A model generated the notes under the pieces. It had not been told where the DNA came from. It did not search any database and saw only the letters and a list, made by a program, of their open reading frames with translations. Made by a program: the position numbers and the translations under genes. This document shows positions 4,263 to 35,947 of a stretch of 64,000 nt of DNA, piece by piece; position 1 is the stretch's first letter, and each line of letters begins with the position of its first letter. The DNA is from Spirochaetota bacterium (lineage in GTDB: Bacteria; Spirochaetota; UBA4802; UB4802). The DNA lies in the NCBI GenBank assembly GCA_026414805.1, contig JAOAIH010000003.1, positions 26,314-90,313 of the forward strand, read 5' to 3'.

Positions 4263-5717
4263 ATGACAAATGATATAGCAAAAAAAATTGGAAATTGTTT
4301 ATACGAAATACCTAAGGATTATAAAAAAGGGATGCGTGTGCCTGCGCGTATCTATGCATCAGAAGAGTTGCTCAGCACCATGGATGCTGCTGTATTTGAG
4401 CAACTTACCAATGTTGCCATGCTTCCTGGTATACAGCGTTATGCGTTATGTATGCCTGATGGCCATTCCGGATATGGTTTTCCAATAGGCGGAGTTGCAG
4501 CAATTGATACTGAGGATGGGGTCATTTCACCAGGAGGAATTGGGTTTGATATTAATTGTGGTGTAAGGTTTTTTATTACAAACTTAACATTCCAGGAGCT
4601 ATCGCCAAAGCTGAATCAGATTATGGATATACTATTTTCCCGAATACCCAGTGGAGTAGGAGGGAAAGGCATAGTATCATTAAACGATAGGCAATTTGAT
4701 GAGGCAATGACCAAAGGTGCACGGTGGGCTATAGAGCATGGTTATGGTATCAGTGATGATTTAAATTTTTGTGAGGAAAATGGCTGTATTGCTAATGCTA
4801 AACCTGAAGCTGTTTCTGGTAAAGCACGTGAGCGCGGAAAAGAACAGATTGGATCCCTTGGTTCGGGGAATCATTATCTAGAGTTTCAGGTTATACGAAG
4901 TAATGATATATTTAACAAAGATATTGCTGATAAATTTGGTATCACAGGTAATGATCAAATAGCGTGCATGATACATTGCGGAAGTAGAGGATTTGGACAT
5001 CAAATAGCAACTGATTATTTGGAACAGTTTATATCAGTTATGAAGCAGAAATACCATATCGATATTCCTGATCGAGAGCTTGCATGTGCGCCATTTTATT
5101 CTAAAGAGGGGCAGTCATATTTTCATGCAATGAATTGTGCAATTAACATTGCTTTTCTTAACCGCCAATTAATATTTCATATCGTGAGGGATACACTAAG
5201 TCAGGTATTTAAAAAATCTCCTGAAGAGTTGGGAATCAAATTGATATATGATGTGTGCCATAACACAGCAAAAATTGAACACTACGAAATTAACGGAAAA
5301 AATAAAAAGTTACTGGTTCATAGAAAAGGTGCAACGAGGGCATTTACTAAAGGAATGCAAGGGATTCCGGAACAATACAGGGAGATAGGGCAACCTGTCT
5401 TAGTTGGTGGAAGTATGCAATCTGCATCATATATTCTGGTTGGTGGTACTAATGCAAAAGATTCTTTTTACAGCACTGTTCATGGAAGTGGGCGGGTAAT
5501 GTCACGGCAGCAGGCTAAAAAACGCTTCAAAGGAAGGGAGCTTGCTGATCAGATGGAAAAAAGTGGCATTACAATAAGAACACGCTCATTTTCAGGATTG
5601 GCTGAGGAAGCTGGTGCAGCGTATAAGGACATTGATGATGTAATTGAGGCAATTACTCAGGCCCAATTAAGTATTCCTGTTGCACGAATGATTCCAATAG
5701 GTTCTATTAAAGGATGA
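4263..5717 (+). CDS. rtcB: RNA 3'-phosphate/5'-OH ligase RtcB, long archaeal-like form
   Basis: MPDGHSGYGFPIGG, GFDINCG, GSGNHYLE, HCGSRG, HRKGAT, HGSGR, AYKDID. Confidence 0.95.
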   Translation: MTNDIAKKIGNCLYEIPKDYKKGMRVPARIYASEELLSTMDAAVFEQLTNVAMLPGIQRYALCMPDGHSGYGFPIGGVAAIDTEDGVISPGGIGFDINCGVRFFITNLTFQELSPKLNQIMDILFSRIPSGVGGKGIVSLNDRQFDEAMTKGARWAIEHGYGISDDLNFCEENGCIANAKPEAVSGKARERGKEQIGSLGSGNHYLEFQVIRSNDIFNKDIADKFGITGNDQIACMIHCGSRGFGHQIATDYLEQFISVMKQKYHIDIPDRELACAPFYSKEGQSYFHAMNCAINIAFLNRQLIFHIVRDTLSQVFKKSPEELGIKLIYDVCHNTAKIEHYEINGKNKKLLVHRKGATRAFTKGMQGIPEQYREIGQPVLVGGSMQSASYILVGGTNAKDSFYSTVHGSGRVMSRQQAKKRFKGRELADQMEKSGITIRTRSFSGLAEEAGAAYKDIDDVIEAITQAQLSIPVARMIPIGSIKG

Positions 5718-6163
5718 GTAGCGATAGTCAAGAGTATTTTGAATTTGTTGAAGATATTACATTAGCGGATATAGCAATCCACTGTAAAGCCAAAACAGTT
5801 GAAAGGATATTTGCTCTGAATGCTGAAGCGCTATTGCATGTATGTCTTGAGAACCCATCAAAATTAAAACAAAATGAGCCATACCATGTTTCAGTAAAAC
5901 ATACGTACCTTGATCTTTTGCTGGTTAAATTTATAAACGAATTGATATTTATTAAAGATACTAGTGGGTTGCTGCTTTATCCTGAAACTGTAAAGGTAAC
6001 AAATACTGGTGATGGTATTACATGTGAGGTTGATTGTATTGGTGATTATATAATAAATGGGTATGATATTAATGTTGATCCCAAAGCAGCAACAATGCAT
6101 AAAGCAAAATGTGAAAAAATAAATAATGATGAATGGGAATCATTTATAGTGATAGATGTATAA
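5714..6163 (+). CDS. Archease
   Basis: 149 aa; N-terminal TLAD, C-terminal KAATMH...IVIDV; ATGA overlap with the rtcB stop. Confidence 0.85.
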   Translation: MSSDSQEYFEFVEDITLADIAIHCKAKTVERIFALNAEALLHVCLENPSKLKQNEPYHVSVKHTYLDLLLVKFINELIFIKDTSGLLLYPETVKVTNTGDGITCEVDCIGDYIINGYDINVDPKAATMHKAKCEKINNDEWESFIVIDV

Positions 6164-7084: not shown

Positions 7085-7113
7085 AAAAAACCCCGCAATG
7101 AGCGGGGTTTTTT
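7085..7113. terminator. Bidirectional intrinsic terminator between folD and qrcD-like gene
   Basis: AAAAAA CCCCGC AATGA GCGGGG TTTTTT between convergent genes. Confidence 0.85.
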
Positions 7114-7130: not shown

Positions 7131-8363
7131 TTAGTGAGCTACCTTTTCATGTTTTTCAGGGAATAGTGGTATATATTTAGCAAACCACATATAGATAAGA
7201 ATCATGCATGCTATTGAACCTAAAAATATAAACCACTCCTGAATTGTTGGATTATATCCAAAGAAATCTTGCCATGGGAAATTTGGAACAGAAAATCCAT
7301 GAAGTAGAACATCTACTTTTAACATAACTATCGCTAAAACTCCACTTATCAAACCTGTAATAAAATATTTCTCGTTTTCACGCAATTTTTTTACATTAAG
7401 TATAACAATTGCCGCAAGTGAAGCCAGCAATTCCACTGCTACTACCCACCATCCATAATATCCACCCATCAGATCAACAAATTTCCTATCAAAAAGTGGA
7501 ACAAAGTGTGTTGCTAGTGTATAAAGATCATATACTCTGAAAAGGAAGTAAGCAATAAATGTTACACCAGCAATTTGTGCCAATGTCATATAAGATTCTT
7601 TGGGAACAAGTTCTTTCTTCATGACCCAGCTTGCAACTTTTGGTGCTAACATCATCAAGCATGGGCCACCAGCTATTGCAGCTACTATCGCCAAATAGAA
7701 ATAATGATGTCTAAACCAATAAGGTTTGGCATATAAAACGCCCCACATTCCTCCACCAAGAGAACCCTGATGGAAAAATGAAAGGAATGTACCGATAGCA
7801 GCAAATATCCACATTAGTTTGTGTAGGTAATGGGCGGTATAATGTACAACCGGGTATCTATCAAGATATTTGTTGCTTAATATAATGGGAAACAACTCAA
7901 TGCACAAAACTATGAAATAAAATGTTAAACACCACACTACTTCAGTGAGCATTGATTGTGGCATTGTATGTGGGCCCCAGTTGGGATACGCATAACCAAA
8001 CCATGCTCTGAGTGGTTGGCCGATATCAAACACAAGTAGGATAAAAGTAAATAGGTAACACATGAAACCAATAAGGACAGTGGAATTTATTAATGGCTGT
8101 AACTTATCAACCCTGAAAATATAAAGCATAAATCCAGTAAAAAATGCTCCACCGCCGAGTGCAACAAAGCCTAAGTCACCAATAATCCATAAGCCCATGG
8201 CAAATCGATTATTCATATCGGTGTATCCTAAGCCCCAGAATAAGATCTGAATACCAAAGATTACAAAAAGGGCTACCAGTGCAAAGAGCACATACAGAGA
8301 AATCTGTATATTCCTTGAGTAGCTATTCCATTCATTTTTCAAAAATTCAATTACTTTGCTCAC
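7131..8363 (-). CDS. NrfD/PsrC-family integral membrane subunit, QrcD-like
   Basis: About 10 TM segments, DLGFVALGGGAF, DIGQPLR, HQGSLGG; last gene of a cytochrome c/Mo-family/FeS operon. Confidence 0.8.
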   Translation of the reverse strand: MSKVIEFLKNEWNSYSRNIQISLYVLFALVALFVIFGIQILFWGLGYTDMNNRFAMGLWIIGDLGFVALGGGAFFTGFMLYIFRVDKLQPLINSTVLIGFMCYLFTFILLVFDIGQPLRAWFGYAYPNWGPHTMPQSMLTEVVWCLTFYFIVLCIELFPIILSNKYLDRYPVVHYTAHYLHKLMWIFAAIGTFLSFFHQGSLGGGMWGVLYAKPYWFRHHYFYLAIVAAIAGGPCLMMLAPKVASWVMKKELVPKESYMTLAQIAGVTFIAYFLFRVYDLYTLATHFVPLFDRKFVDLMGGYYGWWVVAVELLASLAAIVILNVKKLRENEKYFITGLISGVLAIVMLKVDVLLHGFSVPNFPWQDFFGYNPTIQEWFIFLGSIACMILIYMWFAKYIPLFPEKHEKVAH

Positions 8364-8385
8364 GGTTTACTCTCCTTCTACTTTT

Positions 8386-9216
8386 TTAGGAGTTTTTAAA
8401 TCCAGATATTTTATCACGAAGCCATTGCTGGCTTGTTAAATAATAAACTTTTGGATTTGGATATTCTTTGATTTTGATCCTTTTTTCATATTCAGACGGA
8501 TCTTTTGTTTTGAGTTCATCAATAGAATGCACAAGCCTAACAGCTCGGGGATCCTTCTGTACTTTTGGCTCATATACTGGCGAAGTAGGGTCATTAAGGT
8601 CGCCAAAAATTATAGCATTTGTTGGGCATGCACTGGCACATGCCGGGGTATATGTAACAGCATTGATATCAGTTATTCCTTTTGCAATAGCCTTATCACG
8701 TTCACGTTTCCAGATGTGTGAGCAAAATGTACATTTAACCATGGTACCGCGGGAAGCAATAGATACGTCAGGATTGAGGGATTCTTTAAAAGAACCTTCG
8801 TAGCGTGGTTTCCACCAGTGGAACACACGCGCTTCATACGGGCATGCTACCTGGCAGTACCTACAGCCTATGCATCGTGACCATATCTGGCTAACGACAC
8901 CATCATCGCCAACATCGGTAGCAACTACCGGGCATACAGTAACACATGGTGGATGCGGATGTTTTGGATCATTTCCTGAGCACTGCTGACACATCTTTGG
9001 TATATACGCAACTTTTACATCAGGGTACTGTGCCTTTGGATCCTTATCGTTTGTTACTTCTATCAGATCAAGAAAAGTGACTCTTTTTGGCACATCAGAA
9101 TCATCTTTAAAAATTGGAAGATTGTTTTCCTGAGAGCAGGCAATGTTACATGCTCCGCATCCAGTACATTTATCTAAATCTATAACCATTCCCCATCTTC
9201 TTGTCATTGTGGCCAT
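8386..9216 (-). CDS. 4Fe-4S dicluster protein, QrcC-like
   Basis: WGMVIDLDKCTGCGACNIAC, CQQC, CVTVCP, CIGCRYCQVACP, KCTFC, CASACP. Confidence 0.85.
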   Translation of the reverse strand: MATMTRRWGMVIDLDKCTGCGACNIACSQENNLPIFKDDSDVPKRVTFLDLIEVTNDKDPKAQYPDVKVAYIPKMCQQCSGNDPKHPHPPCVTVCPVVATDVGDDGVVSQIWSRCIGCRYCQVACPYEARVFHWWKPRYEGSFKESLNPDVSIASRGTMVKCTFCSHIWKRERDKAIAKGITDINAVTYTPACASACPTNAIIFGDLNDPTSPVYEPKVQKDPRAVRLVHSIDELKTKDPSEYEKRIKIKEYPNPKVYYLTSQQWLRDKISGFKNS

Positions 9217-9229
9217 AATTGTTCACCTC

Positions 9230-11197
9230 TTAACTCAGTTTTACTCGTGTTAACCACCAGTCAGAATAACCACTTAGTGGGTCTAATGCATCTGACATTA
9301 TGGGTTTTGGGTTAACACCTTTTTGGCTACCATATTCAGTCAGTTCTTCATGACCTAAACCAATAGGCACCGCAACCGTATCATAGGCAACCCGTTTTGT
9401 TAGATGTACTCTAACTGTTTCAAGTTCACCACGGGAAGATTCAATATCAATTTTGGAGCCTTCGGAAATCCCTTCTTTTGATGCTGTAACTGGATTCATC
9501 CATACCCAGCTTGTGTCGCCTTTTAAGATGGTATCTGGTAATCCTTTTAATACATAAGGAAGCGCCAGACCATTCCCTTCGCCAATTGTTGGTATTTCAA
9601 AAGGTACCATTGATATGGAGTAAGAACCCGAAGCTTGTAGTAATTTTTCCAATTCTTCAAGTTTTGCAGTTATGATATCTACAGGAATTTCCAAATTAGC
9701 AACATTTTTAGCCTGAAAGCTAACAACTTTGATAGTATCAAGATAACTATTCCATGGGAATTGAGCTGATATATTAGGTACATTTTTGGCAATTGCAAGT
9801 AGTGAATCTCCTGCATGTTTTGCTTCAAATTTGGCTGATACCGCTTGCCCATTGTATGGGATTTCAAGTGAAGTGAGTGTAGGAAAGACATAGTCAGCAT
9901 ATAATGCAGTATCATTAAGTAAAGAAGTGAACAACACTACAGTTGAAGCTTTTTTTAGTTTATCAGAAAGACGCTGCCCATAAACACTTGAATAAACCGG
10001 ATTGGCATTGTTTATCAGTACTATATCACAAGTCATATCGCTTGCAATATATTCATCAAGACCTTTGGTCTTTTTTGCAATAGCGGGTTTTGGAGGTGTT
10101 GTAAATGTAACAACCTTAACACTGTTGCCTAAACTACCAATCATACTGTTAATGGTTTGTATTATGGCAAATTCAGCAACTGAAGATGATACAACCTTTC
10201 CACCTTTACCTGCTACTGCAACCGGCCTGCGTGCATGTACTAAAGCTTTTGCAACAGACTCAATTGTTTCAAGTGATGCACCAGTAAGTTCGGATACCTT
10301 TTCGGGGGTGAATTTATTTATTAAAAGTTCAGTAAATCTTCCAAAATTTGTAGCCCCCGATCGCTTGCCATTCTTGAGCAAGTAATGTGCAACACCCATA
10401 GCAAAAATTGCTTCACTACCTGGTTTTACTGCAACCCACTGATCAGCCAATGAAGCAGTACGTGTTGCTATTGAATCAACCTGTATAAATTTAACATTCT
10501 TTTGTTTCCAGATATTTAATACACTATGCATTCTACCAGGATTACCCCAACCTTCAAAAAGGCGGGCACCAAAACTTACTACGCAATCAGCATTTTCAAA
10601 ATCATAGTCGATAGCTCCTTCAGTTTTCTGGGTTGCTACTGAACAGGCATTACTCAGAGCCCAATATCCAGCTTCCTGGTATACATGAGGACTTCCTGCA
10701 AATAGTACTATTCGCTCATTTAGCATTGATGTGGCGTCAGGGAATGCTGGGTTTATTGCAACAATCTGGTCTTGCTTCTTGTTATTAATGGCATCATTTA
10801 TTTTCTTTGAGATATCTGCTATAGCAGTTTCCCAGGAAACCGGCTCAAAATCAATTTTTCCTTTTTTACCGGTTCGTTTTAATGGAGTTTTAACACGTTC
10901 TGGATGGTAAAGAACCTGTAATAGAAGCTGTCCTGCAGCACACCCTTGATTAGATGTTTCAATTTTAACTGCCCTGTTTCCAATCATCCTGACATTTACA
11001 GTACATTTGTTGGGGCATTGGTCACAGATACTTGCTAAATATTTCTCTTCACCTTTAGGAGGGCGATACTGGTCTTGGGTCCATTCCACAAGCCATTGAA
11101 GGCCCATCCATGGACCAGGTGAAATAAGAGTACCAACACCAGTACCTACAACCGCGCCGCCTATCATTGTTAAAAAATCTTTTCGTTCGAGTTTCAT
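9230..11197 (-). CDS. Molybdopterin oxidoreductase family subunit, QrcB-like
   Basis: Tat-like ERKDFL, CDQCPNKC...C cluster motif, YHPERVKTPLKR, SWETA, molydop-binding C-terminal domain. Confidence 0.8.
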   Translation of the reverse strand: MKLERKDFLTMIGGAVVGTGVGTLISPGPWMGLQWLVEWTQDQYRPPKGEEKYLASICDQCPNKCTVNVRMIGNRAVKIETSNQGCAAGQLLLQVLYHPERVKTPLKRTGKKGKIDFEPVSWETAIADISKKINDAINNKKQDQIVAINPAFPDATSMLNERIVLFAGSPHVYQEAGYWALSNACSVATQKTEGAIDYDFENADCVVSFGARLFEGWGNPGRMHSVLNIWKQKNVKFIQVDSIATRTASLADQWVAVKPGSEAIFAMGVAHYLLKNGKRSGATNFGRFTELLINKFTPEKVSELTGASLETIESVAKALVHARRPVAVAGKGGKVVSSSVAEFAIIQTINSMIGSLGNSVKVVTFTTPPKPAIAKKTKGLDEYIASDMTCDIVLINNANPVYSSVYGQRLSDKLKKASTVVLFTSLLNDTALYADYVFPTLTSLEIPYNGQAVSAKFEAKHAGDSLLAIAKNVPNISAQFPWNSYLDTIKVVSFQAKNVANLEIPVDIITAKLEELEKLLQASGSYSISMVPFEIPTIGEGNGLALPYVLKGLPDTILKGDTSWVWMNPVTASKEGISEGSKIDIESSRGELETVRVHLTKRVAYDTVAVPIGLGHEELTEYGSQKGVNPKPIMSDALDPLSGYSDWWLTRVKLS

Positions 11198-11248
11198 GGA
11201 TGTAATAACTCCTTGCTTGAATTTCGATTCAATATAAAAAAAGAATGA

Positions 11249-11767
11249 TCAATCATGACATACTGCACACGCATTGCTGATTTTTAATGCAGTGTGACAG
11301 TCCATACATACTCCCATGGCCATTTTACCCTTGATTTTTTCGGTAGTTGTTGAATTGCCCTTATCACCGTGACAAGAAACACAATATGCCTTCTTTTCAT
11401 TTTTCATCACTGCTATGTGACTAAAATACACCAGGTCGGGCTGCTGGGCAAAAGATTCCCAGGGTTTGTCATTATCTCCAAAGCCTGAAAAAAATACTTG
11501 TGTATTGACTTTGCTTGGATCATGACATTGCTTACACACAGCAACTGTGGGAATGCCATTGAATCTTCCATTGCTATCATAACTGTGGCATGTCTCACAG
11601 TCAGAAGCTCCATATTTAGTTGTATGGGTACGATGGTTGAATGGAAGAAGTTTTTTTGCCTGTACATTCATTGCATAGTCACAGGCCTGTTGAAAAACAA
11701 TAAAAGAGATGTATGCAAATATAACAAAAGGTAAGAAAAAAAGTAAAAAAGAACGTGTCCCTTTCAC
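11249..11767 (-). CDS. Membrane-anchored pentaheme cytochrome c, QrcA-like
   Basis: N-terminal TM and five CxxCH motifs (CETCH, CKQCH, CVSCH, CMDCH, CAVCH); AGGAG RBS before a GTG start. Confidence 0.85.
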   Translation of the reverse strand: MKGTRSFLLFFLPFVIFAYISFIVFQQACDYAMNVQAKKLLPFNHRTHTTKYGASDCETCHSYDSNGRFNGIPTVAVCKQCHDPSKVNTQVFFSGFGDNDKPWESFAQQPDLVYFSHIAVMKNEKKAYCVSCHGDKGNSTTTEKIKGKMAMGVCMDCHTALKISNACAVCHD

Positions 11768-11848: not shown

Positions 11849-11911
11849 TAATAACCTATGCGAATTCTTGTATATACAATCTTTATGTCAACAAAATTTA
11901 TAAAAAAATAT

Positions 11912-14329
11912 TTATTTAGAATTTCCTACAATCTCCTTTGCCACAGCAACTGCTTCTACAGCATCTTTCCCATAAAATGCGCCGATACTATCAGCATATT
12001 CTTTTGTGACAACAGCGCCACCAACCATTAGTTTACAGGGCAATTTTTGTGTTTTTATCTCTTTGGCAATGATACCCATATTGGGCATAGTTGTGGTTAG
12101 CAGTGAACTCAAACATACAACATCTGGTTTGTATTCATTGATTTTTTCAATGACTATCTCATTAGGTACATCTTTGCCAAGGTCAATCACATTAAACCCG
12201 TGATTTTCGAGCATCATTGCAACAATATTTTTACCAATATCGTGTATATCACCTTTAACCGTACAGATAATTATAGTTCCAAGCGATGATTCCTTCTTCT
12301 GCATCATAAGAGGCTTCAGAATAGTAAAGCCTTTCTTCATGGTATCGGCTGAAGCAATCATCTGTGGGAGGAAATATTCACCTTTGCTGTATAATTCACC
12401 TACTTTTTCAAGTGCAGCTATCAATGCATCATTCATTATTGTATCAGGGCTGTACTGGGTAAGTGCTTCTTTTACTGCTAGTTCTATATCATCAATATTT
12501 CCTTCTACAACAAGTGCAAAAATCCTTTCAAGTATGTTTACAACGTTAGCTTGCTGTTGGGTGTTTTGCTGAGCAGTGCCAAAGTATGCAATATAGTGTG
12601 ATGCATTCTTATCTCTTCCTTCAAGAAAATCCAGTGCAAGCATTTCTTCAGTGGAAAAAGGTTTTGTAATATTGGTATCGATAGCTACGGGATTCACTAT
12701 GGCAGCATACAATCCCCTTTGCAGCGCTAATTTTAAAAATGCATTGTTGATAAATTTTCTCTGTGGTAATCCAAAAGATATATTGCTTAATCCAATACTT
12801 GTTTTAATCCCCATTTGGGCAAAGTGTTCAATAACTTTTAAGGTTTCTATGGCTGCACCGCTTTCTGCGCTTTCGGCCAAAATAAGCGGGTCAATAAAAA
12901 TTCGTGACAGGGCAATACCATTTTGTTGCAGTGCATCAATGAGTTTTTCGCCAATCGCAATACGTTTTTTTGCATCTTTGTGAATCCCGCTTTCATCTAA
13001 GCACATTGCTATAACAAAGCCGCCAAATTTCTTTAACAGTGGCAACATTGCCTCAAAGCTTTGTTTCTTAGCACTGATGGAATTAATAATTGGTATACCG
13101 GGGTATTGCCACAGTGCAGCTTGGGTCACCGCAGGGTTATCTGAGTCTATCATAAGAGGAATGGTCACGGTATTGGTCAGTACATTTACTGCTTTTTTCA
13201 TCAGAGCAACTTCATCAATGCCGGGAACACCAACATTAATATCTAAGCAATGGGCACCTTCCTCCTGCTGCTTTTTGGATTCATTTCGTAAAAATGTAAA
13301 TGTATTTTCTTTCAATTCAGTAGCAAACTGTTTACGAGCTGTTGGATTTAAACGTTCACCAATGATGAGTAATCCATTATGGGTGGTTGTATTAATATTG
13401 GTATATCTGCTGGTGATATAATAGTAGCTTTTTTTATTATTAATTTTTATAAGAATGTTTTTCACAGAAGTTGATAGTGCCTGAATATGCTGGGGCGTAG
13501 TGCCACAGCAACCACCTATAATTGAAAAGCCCATTTTAGCAAATTCAGCTGAAAGCTGAGCAAAGCGTTTGGGTGAAAGGCTATACACCGCTTTTCCATC
13601 AATTAACTCAGGCAGCCCGGCATTAGCCCATACTGAAAGGGGAACACCAAGTTCATGTAGCTGGGCGATAGCTCCTTTGAAAAGCTCAAGGAGACCATCA
13701 GGTCCCATGCTGCAATTAGCCCCCACCACATCTGCACCCATCTGTGACAGTGTGGCCAGCGCTGTAATGATATCAGTGCCGGTGACCGTTTTACCATTTG
13801 ACTCAAACGTCATGCTGCAGATAACAGGAATATCCGTCACATCCTTTGCAGCAAGAAGTGCAAGGCGTGCTTCCTGTAAATCTGTCATTGTTTCAATAGC
13901 AATACAGTCAACACCACCTGCTACAAGGCCAGTAATCTGGCGTTTGAATGCACTGTATACGGTTTCAGCCGGTGTCAAGCCCATTGGTTCCACAAGAGTT
14001 CCTGTTGGGCCAACTGATCCTGCAACAAATGCCTTGTCCCCAGCAACTTCTTTTGCAATTTTTGCTGCAGCTTTGTTAATCTCTTCGCATTGGCTGTCTA
14101 AACCTGCTTCGTGCAATTTTAACGCATTTCCACCAAATGTATTGGTTTCAATTATATCAGCACCGGCTTCAATATACTTTTTATGTATCAATGCTATTAC
14201 ATCTGGGCGTTCAAGGTTAAGTAATTCAAGGTTACCCTTGTATTCGGGCAATGCATTAAACAACATAGTGCCCATCGCACCATCCATAACAAGTGGATAG
14301 GGCTTCAATAAGCGTTTTTGAAAGTTCAC
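11912..14329 (-). CDS. metH: Cobalamin-dependent methionine synthase lacking the C-terminal reactivation domain
   Basis: DGAMGT, TNTFG, GANC, GGCCGT, IGERLN, SNISFGLP, KGDIHDIGKNIV; the GTG at 14329 follows an AAAGGA RBS, whereas the ORF-track start at 14386 lies inside a terminator. Confidence 0.9.
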   Translation of the reverse strand: MNFQKRLLKPYPLVMDGAMGTMLFNALPEYKGNLELLNLERPDVIALIHKKYIEAGADIIETNTFGGNALKLHEAGLDSQCEEINKAAAKIAKEVAGDKAFVAGSVGPTGTLVEPMGLTPAETVYSAFKRQITGLVAGGVDCIAIETMTDLQEARLALLAAKDVTDIPVICSMTFESNGKTVTGTDIITALATLSQMGADVVGANCSMGPDGLLELFKGAIAQLHELGVPLSVWANAGLPELIDGKAVYSLSPKRFAQLSAEFAKMGFSIIGGCCGTTPQHIQALSTSVKNILIKINNKKSYYYITSRYTNINTTTHNGLLIIGERLNPTARKQFATELKENTFTFLRNESKKQQEEGAHCLDINVGVPGIDEVALMKKAVNVLTNTVTIPLMIDSDNPAVTQAALWQYPGIPIINSISAKKQSFEAMLPLLKKFGGFVIAMCLDESGIHKDAKKRIAIGEKLIDALQQNGIALSRIFIDPLILAESAESGAAIETLKVIEHFAQMGIKTSIGLSNISFGLPQRKFINNAFLKLALQRGLYAAIVNPVAIDTNITKPFSTEEMLALDFLEGRDKNASHYIAYFGTAQQNTQQQANVVNILERIFALVVEGNIDDIELAVKEALTQYSPDTIMNDALIAALEKVGELYSKGEYFLPQMIASADTMKKGFTILKPLMMQKKESSLGTIIICTVKGDIHDIGKNIVAMMLENHGFNVIDLGKDVPNEIVIEKINEYKPDVVCLSSLLTTTMPNMGIIAKEIKTQKLPCKLMVGGAVVTKEYADSIGAFYGKDAVEAVAVAKEIVGNSK

Positions 14330-14364
14330 TGCTATGTACCATCCTTTAGGTATATATGGGTTGT

Positions 14365-14395
14365 AAAAAATAACCCCTTGCTTCAAGGGGTTATT
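14365..14395 (-). terminator. Intrinsic terminator between plsC and metH
   Basis: AATAACCCCTTG-CTT-CAAGGGGTTATT 12-bp stem followed by TTTTTT on the minus strand. Confidence 0.75.
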
Positions 14396-32129: not shown

Positions 32130-34334
32130 ATGTTAGGAAAAATTAGTAGAAGAGAATTTATTAAGATAGCAGGGGCTGGGGTTGGCACTCTGGCGGTTGG
32201 CGGAGGCCTTTATAAATTAGTACAAGATGTAATTACGGATAAAAATGCCAATGGACCAGTAGTAAAAACACCTACATATTGTGAAATGTGTACCTACCAG
32301 TGCGCAGGATGGGTTTATAAAAAAGGTGACATGCCATGGAAAATAGTAGGCAATGAGCTTGATGAGCATTGTTATGGCAGAATGTGCACAAAAGGGTTAT
32401 CAGGTCTTGGTGCTTATTTAGATCCCAACAGGCTAAGAACACCTCTAATTAGGAAGAAAGAAAGAGGAAAACAGGTTTTCAAAGAAGCAACATGGGATGA
32501 AGCTTTTACCTATATTGCTGATAAAATGGAATACTTAAAGCAAAAGTACGGTCCTGAGAGCGTTGCATTGTTCAGTCATGGTTCTGGTGGTCATTGGTTT
32601 AAAATGCTTTTAAAAGCTTATGGTACAAATAGTTTTGCTGCTCCATCCTATGCCAACTGTCGTGGTCCTCGCGAAGAAGGATATGTGCTTACGTATGGTG
32701 AACCAATTGATACCCCTGAGCGCACAGATATGAAAAACACGAAATGCTTGGTTCTTATTGGTTCACACATTGGTGAAAATACTCATAGCCAGCAGGTCAT
32801 TGAATTTTCTCAGGCAGTGGCCAATGGAGCAAGTATCATTGTAGTTGATCCACGGTTTTCAGTTGCAGCTAGTAAGGCAAAATACTGGTTACCAATTAAA
32901 CCAGGTACTGATATTGCACTATTATTGGCGTGGATACATGTATTGATCTATGATGAATTATTTGATAAGCAATATGTATACAATAATACTTCTGGATTTG
33001 AGCAATTAAAGCAATCGGTAAAAAATACCACACCTGAATGGGCGTACCCTATTACATCAATTCAGCCTGAATTGATACGTGAAACAGCAAAAGAAATGGC
33101 AAAATACTCCCCTGCAACGATTGTTCATCCGGGAAGGCATAATGTATGGTATGGTGATGATACGCAAAGAGTAAGAGCAGGAGCAATATTGAATGCTCTA
33201 CTTGGTAGTTGGGGCAGGAAAGGCGGATTTTTCTATCCAGAAAAAGTAGATTTGCCTGAATATCCAACTCCTCCGTTCCCTCATCCTAAGAAATCATTTA
33301 AAGATGCTGTGAATAATAAATATGAACTGGCTAATTTGATTGTTTCATCAGGTATTTGTGATGCAACCATTCATAATGTGATGAATGGGAGCTCATTTTA
33401 TGAAGGTTGGTTCATATATGGTTCAAATCTATTGAAAGCCCTACCACAACAGGAAAAAACCATTAAAGCATTGCAGGATCTTGAATTGGTTGTAGTTGTG
33501 GATATTTTACCAACAGAAATAACTGGTTGGGCAGATGTTGTACTTCCTGATACTACGTATTTAGAGCGATATGATGACATAAGAACCTCACAGGGCAGAA
33601 CACCTCAAATAGCTTTGCGTATGCCTGCATTTAATCCAAGGTATAATTCAAAGCCAGCATGGTGGATTGCCAAAAACCTTGCCGAAAAGATGGGTCTGGG
33701 GGATTATTTCCCGTGGAAAACAATTGAAGAGTATCTTGATTATAAATTAAAAGCTGTTGGAACCTCACTTGATGAAATGAAACAGGTTGGCGTTAAAAAT
33801 TTCGATCGACAAACACCACTGTATATAACAGGTGCACAATTACCACGATTAGATACCCCCAGTGGTAAAATTGAATTGTATTCATCAACATTGGCAAGTT
33901 ATGGATTTGACCCAATTCCCGTTTATACAAAACATGAAGAGCCACCTAAAGGATATTACAGGTTACTGTATGGACGTTCTCCTTTCCACTCATTTGCACG
34001 GACTATAAATAATCCTGTTCTAACGCAATTGCAGGATGAAAATACAGTATGGGTACATCCTACTGTTGCTTTGGATTGGAATTTGAAGAATGATCAGTAT
34101 GTAAGATTGGAAAATCAGGATGGTGTTGTAAGTAATAAGATTAGGGTTAAGGTAACAGAAAGGATACGACCTGATTGTGTGTACATGGTTCATGGATTTG
34201 GGAGTAAGCAGAAGCAGTTGAAGCGTGCGTATAAAAAAGGTGCTGATGACCAGCAACTCATAACAAAAGTAAGTGTTGATCCTATTATGGGTGGTCAGGC
34301 AATGCATGGTAATTTTGTTACCTTTAAAGTTTAG
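32130..34334 (+). CDS. Polysulfide/thiosulfate reductase catalytic subunit (PsrA/PhsA-like)
   Basis: Tat motif SRREFIK, CEMCTYQC...C, probable Mo-ligand Cys in ANCRGPR, DLPxTxYLERYD-type MGD motif. Confidence 0.85.
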   Translation: MLGKISRREFIKIAGAGVGTLAVGGGLYKLVQDVITDKNANGPVVKTPTYCEMCTYQCAGWVYKKGDMPWKIVGNELDEHCYGRMCTKGLSGLGAYLDPNRLRTPLIRKKERGKQVFKEATWDEAFTYIADKMEYLKQKYGPESVALFSHGSGGHWFKMLLKAYGTNSFAAPSYANCRGPREEGYVLTYGEPIDTPERTDMKNTKCLVLIGSHIGENTHSQQVIEFSQAVANGASIIVVDPRFSVAASKAKYWLPIKPGTDIALLLAWIHVLIYDELFDKQYVYNNTSGFEQLKQSVKNTTPEWAYPITSIQPELIRETAKEMAKYSPATIVHPGRHNVWYGDDTQRVRAGAILNALLGSWGRKGGFFYPEKVDLPEYPTPPFPHPKKSFKDAVNNKYELANLIVSSGICDATIHNVMNGSSFYEGWFIYGSNLLKALPQQEKTIKALQDLELVVVVDILPTEITGWADVVLPDTTYLERYDDIRTSQGRTPQIALRMPAFNPRYNSKPAWWIAKNLAEKMGLGDYFPWKTIEEYLDYKLKAVGTSLDEMKQVGVKNFDRQTPLYITGAQLPRLDTPSGKIELYSSTLASYGFDPIPVYTKHEEPPKGYYRLLYGRSPFHSFARTINNPVLTQLQDENTVWVHPTVALDWNLKNDQYVRLENQDGVVSNKIRVKVTERIRPDCVYMVHGFGSKQKQLKRAYKKGADDQQLITKVSVDPIMGGQAMHGNFVTFKV

Positions 34335-34377
34335 TGTAATTACGAAAGCACATATCAAATGATGTAAAGAGGTCAAC

Positions 34378-34929
34378 ATGGCAAATAAGACTAAAAAGTA
34401 TGTAATGGTTATAGATACGCGTTTATGTGTTGGTTGTGGAGCATGTGTAGCAGCATGTAAAATGGAAAATCAGGTTCCTGAAGGCTTGCATAGGGATTGG
34501 ATTGTGGAACAGGTAACTGGAACTTATCCTAATCTTTCTATGGAAATTCGTTCAGAACGTTGTAATCACTGTTCCAATGCTCCATGTATTACTTCATGTC
34601 CAACAGGTGCAAGTCATCGTAAAGAAGGAACAAATATTGTTGTAGTAACAGCTAATAAATGCACTGGTTGCAAAGCATGTATGGCTTCATGCCCATACAA
34701 TGCTCGCTTTGTAATGCCAGATGGGTATGTAAGTAAATGTACTTTCTGTGAACATAGATTAGAAGAGGGTTTAGAACCCGCTTGTGCTTCAGCGTGTCCA
34801 ACACATGCCATTACGTTTGGCAATTTGAATGACACAATGAACAAGGTTTCAAAATTATTAAAAACCAGAAAGTATAAAACCATTATTCCCGAGGCCGGGA
34901 CTGATCCAAATATATTCTATTTATTATAA
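34378..34929 (+). CDS. PsrB/PhsB/NrfC-like 4Fe-4S subunit
   Basis: CVGCGACVAAC, CNHC..PCITSCP, CTGCKACMASCPY, KCTFC..PACASACP. Confidence 0.9.
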   Translation: MANKTKKYVMVIDTRLCVGCGACVAACKMENQVPEGLHRDWIVEQVTGTYPNLSMEIRSERCNHCSNAPCITSCPTGASHRKEGTNIVVVTANKCTGCKACMASCPYNARFVMPDGYVSKCTFCEHRLEEGLEPACASACPTHAITFGNLNDTMNKVSKLLKTRKYKTIIPEAGTDPNIFYLL

Positions 34930-34954
34930 CAAATAATGAAATTAAAAGAATAGC

Positions 34955-35947
34955 ATGAGGTTGCTTATGAATGAAATAGTACTAACAACAAAAAAAGCGA
35001 TTGAGGCAGGCCATTCAATGAGTATTTGGAAATGGGAAGTGCCAATGTATCTTTTCCTTGGTGGCCTCACAGCAGGAATTCTCCTTATTGCTGCTTTTAT
35101 GATTTTGAAAGATAAACCAAAGAAATATCCATTTTCAACTAATAAATTAATTTTGCTGGCACCAATTATTTTAAGTGTTGGTATGTTATTTCTTTTCTTA
35201 GATCTTGACCATAAGTTGTATGTATGGCGATTTTATACTGCATTCCGAATCACATCGGTTATGTCATGGGGTGCATGGATATTGATGCTTGTATATCCTT
35301 TAAGTATTGGGTTAATATTGGCAACTGTCAAGAAAGGTTATGCTGAGTATTACGATAGATTTAATAAATGGCTGAAGAATTCCAAATACAATAAACTATC
35401 GCCAATTATTGATAAATTAATTGTCCTTGCTGAAAAGTACAAAAAGCCTCTGGCTATAGCAACAATACCAGTAGGTATTTTACTTGGTATATATACAGGA
35501 ATTTTATTAAGTGCGTTTTCAGCACGGCCATTCTGGAATTCAGAACTTCTTGGATTTTTATTTTTAGTTTCGGGATTATCTACTGGAGCTGCACTGGTTA
35601 TTTTACTAGCAAAAGATCATGAGGAAAGGAAATTCATCACAAAACTTGATATTGGGTTTATTGCAGTAGAGGCAATATTACTTGTACTGTATATTTTTGG
35701 TATGCTGTCTTCGTCTTTACAGCATATTGATGCAATAAAGTTAATTTTGGGTGGCGAATTGACGCCTATATTTTGGTCTTTTGTGTTTGTTATAGGAATG
35801 CTGATTCCTTTAACACTTGAGCTTCTTGAACTGAAAGGTAAGCCTATACCTTCATCCATTGCTGCATCATTGGTGCTTGCTGGTGGGTTGGCTTTACGAT
35901 TTATTTTTGTTGCAGCTGGCCAGATTACAAACTGGCTACCATATTAA
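34955..35947 (+). CDS. PsrC/NrfD membrane anchor
   Basis: WEVPMYLFLGGL, LDL, SVMSWGAW, YTGILL..RPFWN, SGLSTG. Confidence 0.9.
   Translation: MRLLMNEIVLTTKKAIEAGHSMSIWKWEVPMYLFLGGLTAGILLIAAFMILKDKPKKYPFSTNKLILLAPIILSVGMLFLFLDLDHKLYVWRFYTAFRITSVMSWGAWILMLVYPLSIGLILATVKKGYAEYYDRFNKWLKNSKYNKLSPIIDKLIVLAEKYKKPLAIATIPVGILLGIYTGILLSAFSARPFWNSELLGFLFLVSGLSTGAALVILLAKDHEERKFITKLDIGFIAVEAILLVLYIFGMLSSSLQHIDAIKLILGGELTPIFWSFVFVIGMLIPLTLELLELKGKPIPSSIAASLVLAGGLALRFIFVAAGQITNWLPY

Follow-up and report, generated by a model that had tools for sequence, protein, structure and literature searches.

A Qrc-Type Operon from a Spirochaete Sister Clade, Predicted to Link Periplasmic Hydrogen Oxidation to Menaquinone

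Introduction

The Qrc complex of Nitratidesulfovibrio vulgaris (QrcABCD, DVU0695-0692) is a type I cytochrome c3:menaquinone oxidoreductase, and its activity is electrogenic with an H+/e- ratio of 1, as determined by a menaquinone-liposome method (PMC6303296). QrcD was found only in 35 Deltaproteobacteria (Calisto and Pereira, 2021, PMC8076601), and Qrc was likewise described as a complex of sulfate-reducing Desulfobacterota (Manteigas et al., 2026, PMC13059093). When we searched the literature for Qrc together with Spirochaetota, we found no paper linking the two. Here we analyze a 64,000-nucleotide stretch of spirochaete DNA (hereafter the window), which carries a qrcABCD-like operon at positions 7131-11767 on its minus strand. 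The window corresponds to positions 26314-90313 of the contig labelled C120, from a 3.24-Mb genome with a completeness of 95.6%, and the stretch is present in a 2014 hot-springs metagenome DNA run. We consider the operon to encode a Qrc-type c3:menaquinone oxidoreductase of a spirochaete sister clade, most likely feeding electrons from periplasmic H2 to menaquinone, a reading to which we assign a probability of about 80%.

Other described systems share parts of this architecture. Alternative complex III (ACIII; structures 6f0k, 6btm, 6lod, and 8k9e) similarly combines an anchored pentahaem cytochrome, a cofactor-less MopB-like module, an iron-sulfur (FeS) module and a quinone subunit of the NrfD fold. 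However, it has a fused ActB of ~1000 residues, a second NrfD-like subunit (ActF), ActD and a monohaem ActE, and it oxidizes quinol. Escherichia coli hydrogenase 2 (Hyd-2, HybOABC), as well as the corresponding operons of some spirochaetes described below, resembles Qrc in connecting periplasmic H2 to menaquinone, and HybA and HybB are homologous to QrcC and QrcD, but here the hydrogenase docks directly on HybAB and there is no cytochrome c3, A or B subunit. Finally, the PsrABC, PhsABC and ArrAB reductases (2vpw, 6cz7) share with the spirochaete operon the fold of the B subunit, the N-terminal FS0 motif and the architecture of the BC(D) module, while differing from it in having a molybdenum-ligand cysteine and no cytochrome subunit. 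The window contains a PsrABC operon of its own (32130-35947), which is separate from the genes considered here and clearly of the catalytic type.

Results

Four Genes in the Qrc Order

A preliminary description of this DNA had proposed a four-gene operon encoding a cytochrome, a molybdenum-family subunit, an Fe-S subunit and an NrfD subunit in the order of QrcABCD. We found four co-directional open reading frames at exactly the coordinates it gave, separated by gaps of 51, 13, and 22 nucleotides:

11249..11767, minus strand: qrcA-like gene, membrane-anchored pentahaem cytochrome c of 172 residues with five CxxCH motifs; best NCBIfam match QrcA
9230..11197, minus strand: qrcB-like gene, MopB-fold protein of 655 residues with a twin-arginine translocation (Tat)-type N-terminus; Pfam Molybdopterin and Molydop_binding, best NCBIfam match QrcB
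8386..9216, minus strand: qrcC-like gene, four-cluster FeS protein of 276 residues with 16 cysteines; best NCBIfam match QrcC
7131..8363, minus strand: qrcD-like gene, NrfD-fold quinone-binding membrane subunit of 410 residues; best NCBIfam match QrcD

The A-B-C-D order, which is identical in all 20 spirochaete loci examined, the unfused B and C genes and the single NrfD-type subunit with 10 helices are all as in N. vulgaris. The best NCBIfam match of each product was the corresponding Qrc model, with scores of 92.6 bits for A (cut-off 180), 305.8 bits for B (cut-off 440; PhsA next, at 168 bits on the N-terminal half), 270.8 bits for C (cut-off 400; DsrO next, at 124.8 bits) and 324.6 bits for D (E 1e-96, cut-off 570; HybB 98 and HmcC 74 bits). 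No Pfam match was obtained for D, which is also missed by PF03916.

Sequence searches gave a consistent ranking, in that phmmer placed the spirochaete clade first, Desulfobacterales Qrc second and Act, Hmc and Psr proteins after these for every subunit. The closest homologues of B fell into ~100 clusters with 40-92% identity, every named one of which came from a Spirochaetota metagenome-assembled genome, and some of the spirochaete homologues carry the annotation "menaquinone reductase" from the Joint Genome Institute pipeline. A second tier of B homologues was found at ~29% identity. Five of its proteins were scored against the QrcB model and reached 525-570 bits, above the cut-off, and in an alignment headed by this tier the 80 best loci, at 56-69% identity to it, were nearly all titled Desulfobacterales or Deltaproteobacteria. 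Overall, identity of the spirochaete proteins to the Desulfobacterales subunits is ~30% for B and ~35% for D.

A and D were also compared with their relatives individually. An AlphaFold model of D (mean predicted local distance difference test score 87.7) matched ActC of ACIII with template modelling (TM) scores of 0.74-0.80 and PsrC with a target-normalized TM score of 0.72, and D is thus predicted to have the NrfD fold, consisting of two four-helix bundles without cofactors. When a profile of the D family was searched against solved structures, only ActC was recovered (6f0k_C, E 7e-13), and neither this profile nor the equivalent B-family profile matched a chain named Qrc. The A subunit has an N-terminal hydrophobic helix, and its five haem motifs together with the FNH and QPD..F.H motifs align equally well with Desulfobacterales QrcA and with spirochaete ActA. 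A is too short to discriminate between the two. Compared with Desulfobacterales QrcA, the spirochaete protein lacks an insertion of ~20 residues between haems 3 and 4 as well as a long N-terminal extension. The QrcA proteins of all 11 Desulfobacterales loci examined (among L025-L099) contain five CxxCH motifs, compared with the six reported for N. vulgaris, so a pentahaem A subunit is no departure from canonical Qrc.

Phylogenetic Position

Trees were built from the whole operons of 20 spirochaete genomes, 11 Desulfobacterales loci and 29 additional Desulfobacterota QrcD sequences. As outgroups we included five ACIII operons from other spirochaete families, HmcBC, the HybAB proteins of relatives, and the Psr and other molybdenum enzymes of the genome itself. 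Support values are those of quick trees with the Shimodaira-Hasegawa-like approximate likelihood ratio test (SH-aLRT). In the D tree, the spirochaete clade (support 100) was sister to the entire sampled clade of Desulfobacterota QrcD (98-99) and was not nested in any of its subgroups. The node joining the two had a support of 99 both under LG+G4 (86 rows) and under LG+C20+F+G4 (49 rows, HybB included), and HybB, HmcC and ActC fell outside the pair. In the C tree, the spirochaete clade was sister to Desulfobacterales QrcC with a support of 81, with ActB2 next. Comparison with Qrc, Act and Psr, which the preliminary description had called for, therefore groups D and C with Qrc rather than with ActABC or Psr; the placement of B is weighed in the Discussion.

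The QrcD family is small, with 44 representatives at E<=1e-30 in a representative search. Four metagenomic NrfD-type proteins (P0253, P0275, P0282, and P0284) have QrcD as their best NCBIfam match at 200-280 bits, below the cut-off, and these four, together with P0285-P0287, P0302, and P0303, branch between the Qrc pair and Hmc/HybB in the D tree.

The trees bear directly on the possibility that the operon is a reduced ACIII, that is, ActABC without ActDEF. Several features are in keeping with such an origin: A is short and of ActA-like length, it lacks the haem 3-4 insertion of Desulfobacterales QrcA and one ActA matches it at 66 bits, ActB2 lies beside the Qrc clade in the C tree, and ACIII does occur in other families of Spirochaetota. 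However, B and C are not fused, and only one NrfD-like subunit is encoded. Using the ActD marker PF11821 to survey ACIII, we detected it in 27 of 151 Spirochaetota genomes, but neither in this genome nor in those sampled from its order. Moreover, long branches with full support lie between the spirochaete clade and ActB1, ActC and ActF, ActB1 being excluded at a support of 100 in the B tree, and the B-family profile scored only 56-89 bits on ActB as opposed to 316 bits on ArrA and 272 bits on PsrA. As judged from these trees a derivation from ACIII is already contradicted, and we regard it as extremely unlikely.

Conservation of Functional Residues in C and D

In N. vulgaris, residues D70, Y110, S138, and Y150 of QrcD and Y113 of QrcC were shown to be essential by Manteigas et al. 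(2026, PMC13059093), who found D120, R358, and E413 of QrcD to be dispensable. We carried the QrcD numbering over to the spirochaete proteins through Desulfobacterota sequences that fit 21 of the 22 published conserved positions (PMC8076601) at a single offset. All four essential QrcD residues are invariant in the 20 spirochaete orthologues, corresponding to D63, Y103, S137, and Y149 of the window protein. The same is true of E142, E157, H182, S196, H199, and S202, and D120 is retained in 19 of the 20. In the C subunit, 16 cysteines in four ferredoxin-type groups and the tyrosine of a CxxC-x-Y-C motif (Y120 in the window) are invariant in 60 of 60 sequences. This tyrosine is at position 113 in four canonical QrcC proteins and is present in all 20 spirochaete C sequences, and it probably corresponds to the essential Y113. 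The spirochaete operon therefore resembles Desulfobacterota Qrc both in its 16 invariant C-subunit cysteines and in keeping the essential residues of QrcD and the probable counterpart of QrcC Y113.

The B Subunit Is Very Probably Not Catalytic

The preliminary description had pointed out a variant Tat motif (ERKDFL) and an N-terminal CxxCxxxC..C motif in B, and had left it undecided whether B is catalytic. Both motifs are there, the Tat-like ERKDFL being followed by C58-x2-C61-x3-C65...C86. The cysteine motif is not a special feature of this protein, as it is kept in all 21 aligned QrcB proteins of the above-cut-off type (of which 5 were scored, all above the cut-off). In contrast, among 96 spirochaete B orthologues the full set of FS0 cysteines was found in no more than 64, and the motif is broken in at least 21, which sets these proteins apart from Desulfobacterota QrcB, as do a length shorter by ~80-100 residues and a Tat pair that is often RK. 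Within the spirochaete clade the Tat pair varies between RR and RK. These sequences suggest that FS0 is dispensable within the clade.

We next consider the position of the molybdenum ligand, for which an alignment check had been proposed. In phmmer alignments, the ligand cysteines of ArrA and PsrA fall on the W or the A of "GYWALS" in B, while in a MAFFT alignment the ligand cysteine of the window PsrA lies within a 2-residue insertion that is missing from every QrcB-type sequence. Residues flanking this gap vary among the orthologues (W, C, A, N, K, H, or R), with no conserved ligand. B is also the least conserved subunit, with a mean pairwise identity within the clade of 50%, compared with 60% for A, 63% for D and 72% for C. 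These features recur in canonical QrcB, which was reported to contain no redox cofactor (PMC13059093).

One could nevertheless envisage B as a working enzyme with a molybdenum- or tungsten-bis(pyranopterin guanine dinucleotide) cofactor, and the operon as a periplasmic reductase of the Psr/Phs/Arr kind that acquired a cytochrome subunit. The window protein does have a complete MopB fold with all four of the FS0 cysteines, its N-terminal half matches PhsA, and Mo-cofactor enzymes are encoded elsewhere in the genome. In addition, ArrA and PsrA are its nearest structures: an AlphaFold model of B (mean predicted local distance difference test score 87.4) matched them with TM scores of ~0.75, ActB being ranked 41st. 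However, the gap opposite the PsrA ligand with its variable neighbours, the incomplete FS0 motif of many orthologues, the low conservation of B and its likeness to the cofactor-free canonical QrcB all speak against catalysis, and we consider such an enzyme very unlikely. B is very probably non-catalytic and is predicted to lack a Mo cofactor, as a MopB-fold protein without a Mo ligand like its Desulfobacterota counterparts. Given the absence of a conserved ligand, the frequently incomplete FS0, the lowest conservation in the operon and the alternation of RR and RK, B is probably a scaffold that also mediates export, a role likewise reported for canonical QrcB.

A Periplasmic Donor System

Desulfobacterota Qrc is partnered by a periplasmic hydrogenase without a membrane subunit and a tetrahaem class III cytochrome. 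We searched the genome for periplasmic donors, as had been suggested, and found the same pair on contig C153, in a row of four genes. The gene of a tetrahaem class III cytochrome is followed by three others, for a maturation protease and for the subunits of an [NiFe] hydrogenase, first the small and then the large one; no cytochrome b or HybAB gene was found in this cluster. The cytochrome c3 (L015:8908-9312, minus strand) matched PF02085 at 46 bits, above the cut-off, and contains 8 histidines, and the large hydrogenase subunit matched NF033181 at 685 bits, also above the cut-off. In the small subunit (L015:7385-8389, minus strand) a Tat motif is followed by a lipobox, LIQGC, and the c3 has the lipobox VIIGC. 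Lipoboxes are likewise found in the c3 leaders of family f6, one of seven families of the order (f1-f7). Because of these lipoprotein-type leaders on the small subunit and c3, which distinguish the spirochaete system from that of Desulfobacterota, the entire donor chain may be membrane-tethered rather than soluble. Selenocysteine in the hydrogenase was considered and rejected, as the TGA codon precedes the start codon and the active site has the motif DPCIAC.

Two further hydrogenase loci were noted. Contig C142 encodes a heterodimeric [FeFe] hydrogenase, the large subunit of which (421 residues; L013:1462-2727, minus strand) has two ferredoxin-type FeS motifs, an H-cluster domain, and a Tat-like TRKDFLK followed by the lipobox LLVSC; the small subunit (Fe_hyd_SSU, 106 residues) is at L013:1103-1423, minus strand. 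The leader suggests that this is a second periplasmic, lipid-anchored hydrogenase. In the HydAB hydrogenase of Desulfovibrio, the Tat signal sits on the small subunit. An arrangement like that of formate hydrogenlyase is found on contig C186 (L023:813-11177), where the gene for a formate dehydrogenase of the cytoplasmic, FdhF-like type (655 residues) adjoins those for a group-4-type [NiFe] hydrogenase and membrane subunits. A Tat-type formate dehydrogenase was not found in the genome, the three other Mo enzymes beginning directly at the FS0 motif.

Synteny and Co-occurrence in the Order

The association of the donor genes with qrc is most direct in family f6. In five genomes of this family, c3, the protease, the hydrogenase small and large subunits and qrcA-B-C-D form a single same-strand cluster, a second difference in the donor system from Desulfobacterota. 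Among 401 sampled Spirochaetota genomes, 62 have B-like genes, and all 62 belong to the order of the window. By family, these genes occur in 10/10 (f1), 8/8 (f2), 32/40 (f3), 1/5 (f4), 0/6 (f5), 9/9 (f6) and 1/1 (f7) genomes. Considering the 78 genomes of the order that were seen in both searches, Qrc and a Hyn-type hydrogenase occurred together in 55, Qrc alone in 5, the hydrogenase alone in 2 and neither in 16, counts for which we claim no statistics since related genomes are not independent.

Five of the 16 genomes with neither carry only a second hydrogenase of ~40% identity. Three of these were examined (G198, L220:3-4980; G188, L221:5941-10915; G051, L222:5777-10775) and each has a Hyd-2-type hybO-hybA-hybB-hybC operon, which brings its own FeS/NrfD quinone module. 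The presence of Hyd-2 in relatives that lack Qrc points to two alternative periplasmic routes from H2 to menaquinone within one order.

Menaquinone and Its Possible Oxidants

The preliminary description had placed this Qrc-like complex outside the sulfate-reducing Desulfobacterota, and this is borne out by the spirochaete host, in whose genome (95.6% complete, as noted above) we found no match to dsrA above noise and no match to aprA. The genome contains two genes of the MqnA/MqnD family of the futalosine pathway; menA was not found. The only other NrfD-family gene is psrC. Candidate quinol oxidizers are encoded on contig C1 (NrfAH) and within the window itself (PsrABC as well as a DsrMK-like/DsrE2 module), and the genome holds only 8 multihaem open reading frames.

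These data also bear on the direction of electron flow. The same complex might run in reverse, as a menaquinol:cytochrome c oxidoreductase that drains the quinone pool to c3, whether for H2 production by the periplasmic hydrogenases, driven by the proton motive force as in syntrophy, or toward other periplasmic or extracellular acceptors, in a role like that of ACIII. Such a direction would be in line with the reported reversibility of Qrc in syntrophic Desulfovibrio, where it is said to be required for production of H2 or formate (PMC6303296), with the fact that the nearest solved structures of D are those of ActC, a quinol oxidase module, and with the cytoplasmic [FeFe] and group-4-type hydrogenase genes, which fit a fermentative lifestyle. 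On the other hand, formation of H2 from menaquinol is strongly endergonic, and the NF033181 match assigns the [NiFe] hydrogenase to the uptake-type group 1. Furthermore, none of the few multihaem proteins is an obvious c3-dependent periplasmic terminal reductase, NrfA having NrfH as its partner, and the relatives without Qrc have the uptake-type Hyd-2 instead. We therefore consider the reverse direction unlikely.

Genomic Setting of the Operon

Two putative transcription signals bracket the four genes:

11864..11891, minus strand: promoter-like site TTGACA-16-AAGAAT with 10/12 consensus matches, inside the 144-nucleotide gap between metH and gene A
7085..7113, minus strand: strong intrinsic terminator with a 12-bp stem, 6 GC pairs and a T-run, between the qrcD-like stop codon and the convergent folD

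The promoter-like site is a consensus match only, and the regional count of such sites is not above that of shuffled sequence. The neighbours of the operon, metH and folD, are unrelated to it. The window MetH (11912-14386, minus strand, 824 residues) aligns to positions 6-859 of the 1182-position TIGR02082 model, and therefore lacks the C-terminal reactivation domain. A metH-like gene is also found upstream of the c3-hyn-qrc cluster in three of the five f6 genomes (e.g., L147:143-2572 and L148:129-2351). That the same kind of metH gene flanks both the window operon and the f6 cluster implies that the c3-hyn block has either left or entered this metH-qrc site. Elsewhere in the window, an RtcB RNA ligase gene (484 residues) is followed by an overlapping archease gene (149 residues) at 4263-6163 on the plus strand.

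Discussion

We have described an operon that is most closely related to Qrc, in a host outside the phylum and the physiology with which Qrc has been associated. Each electron-transfer step of the pathway proposed here, its direction and its coupling to protons we infer from gene content, homology, phylogeny, residue conservation, synteny, and co-occurrence. In the periplasm, H2 would be oxidized by the Tat-exported, lipid-anchored [NiFe] hydrogenase, which lacks a membrane or quinone subunit of its own, and the heterodimeric [FeFe] hydrogenase with its Tat/lipobox leader may also contribute. The lipoprotein tetrahaem cytochrome c3 would accept the electrons and hand them to the pentahaem A subunit; the four FeS clusters of C would then carry them on to menaquinone, bound in D on its periplasmic side. 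B would act as a cofactor-poor scaffold, with its Tat signal exporting both B and C. Along the conserved D/Y/S/Y pathway, D would draw two protons from the cytoplasm, and this uptake from the cytoplasmic side would make menaquinone reduction electrogenic, as in N. vulgaris. The resulting menaquinol would be reoxidized with nitrite through NrfH-NrfA, with polysulfide or thiosulfate through PsrABC, or via the DsrMK-like module, and not by sulfate reduction. The earlier suggestion that Qrc loads the quinone pool for the Psr and DsrMK-like modules is plausible, but respiration of nitrite with H2 through NrfAH has at least as much support.

Several observations weigh against this assignment and the direction proposed. 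All four subunits score below the curated equivalog cut-offs of their NCBIfam Qrc models. In phmmer searches, A scores canonical QrcA no higher than one ActA, and the link of B to canonical QrcB was recovered in the tree at a support of only 20. Among the conserved positions of QrcD, E413, R87, S234, and T286 are not conserved in the spirochaetes and R358 is replaced by lysine in 19 of 20, although the loss of R358 and E413 has to be set against their being non-essential in N. vulgaris. The genomes with Qrc alone (5) or with the hydrogenase alone (2) depart from the expected pairing, and most of them are 84-97% complete. Finally, Qrc is reversible in syntrophic Desulfovibrio, as discussed above. 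Because Qrc is the closest relative, yet the equivalog thresholds were not reached and the host is not one of the Desulfobacterota in which Qrc has been described, the spirochaete operon is a sister-clade variant of Qrc and not a plain member.

What we report is not a new kind of machine but a known complex in a phylum and a physiology that are new for it, a well-supported finding for which the evidence from synteny is unusually clear. On a more tentative note, Qrc might be an older, general adaptor of hydrogenase and c3 to the quinone pool, with the spirochaetes as a deep sister lineage (found in most genomes sampled and in six of the seven families of the order) in which it serves respiration of nitrite or sulfur compounds in hosts that never had Dsr or Apr. 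We regard this as possible, though somewhat short of an even chance. If it is true, the f6 cluster may represent nearly the functional unit of the ancestor, and recruitment of Qrc to sulfate reduction would have been a secondary step in Desulfobacterota.

The spirochaete operons would widen the role of Qrc to that of a general energy-conserving step from H2 to menaquinone that is not bound to sulfate respiration. They also provide a comparison set, in which the distinction between conserved and free positions, as well as the B subunits that lack FS0, could inform the mechanism of the proton pathway in NrfD-type proteins. For the organisms themselves, our analysis predicts that these uncultured spirochaetes respire H2 through a periplasmic chain like that of Desulfovibrio, which may serve as a guide for their cultivation with H2 and nitrite, polysulfide or thiosulfate.

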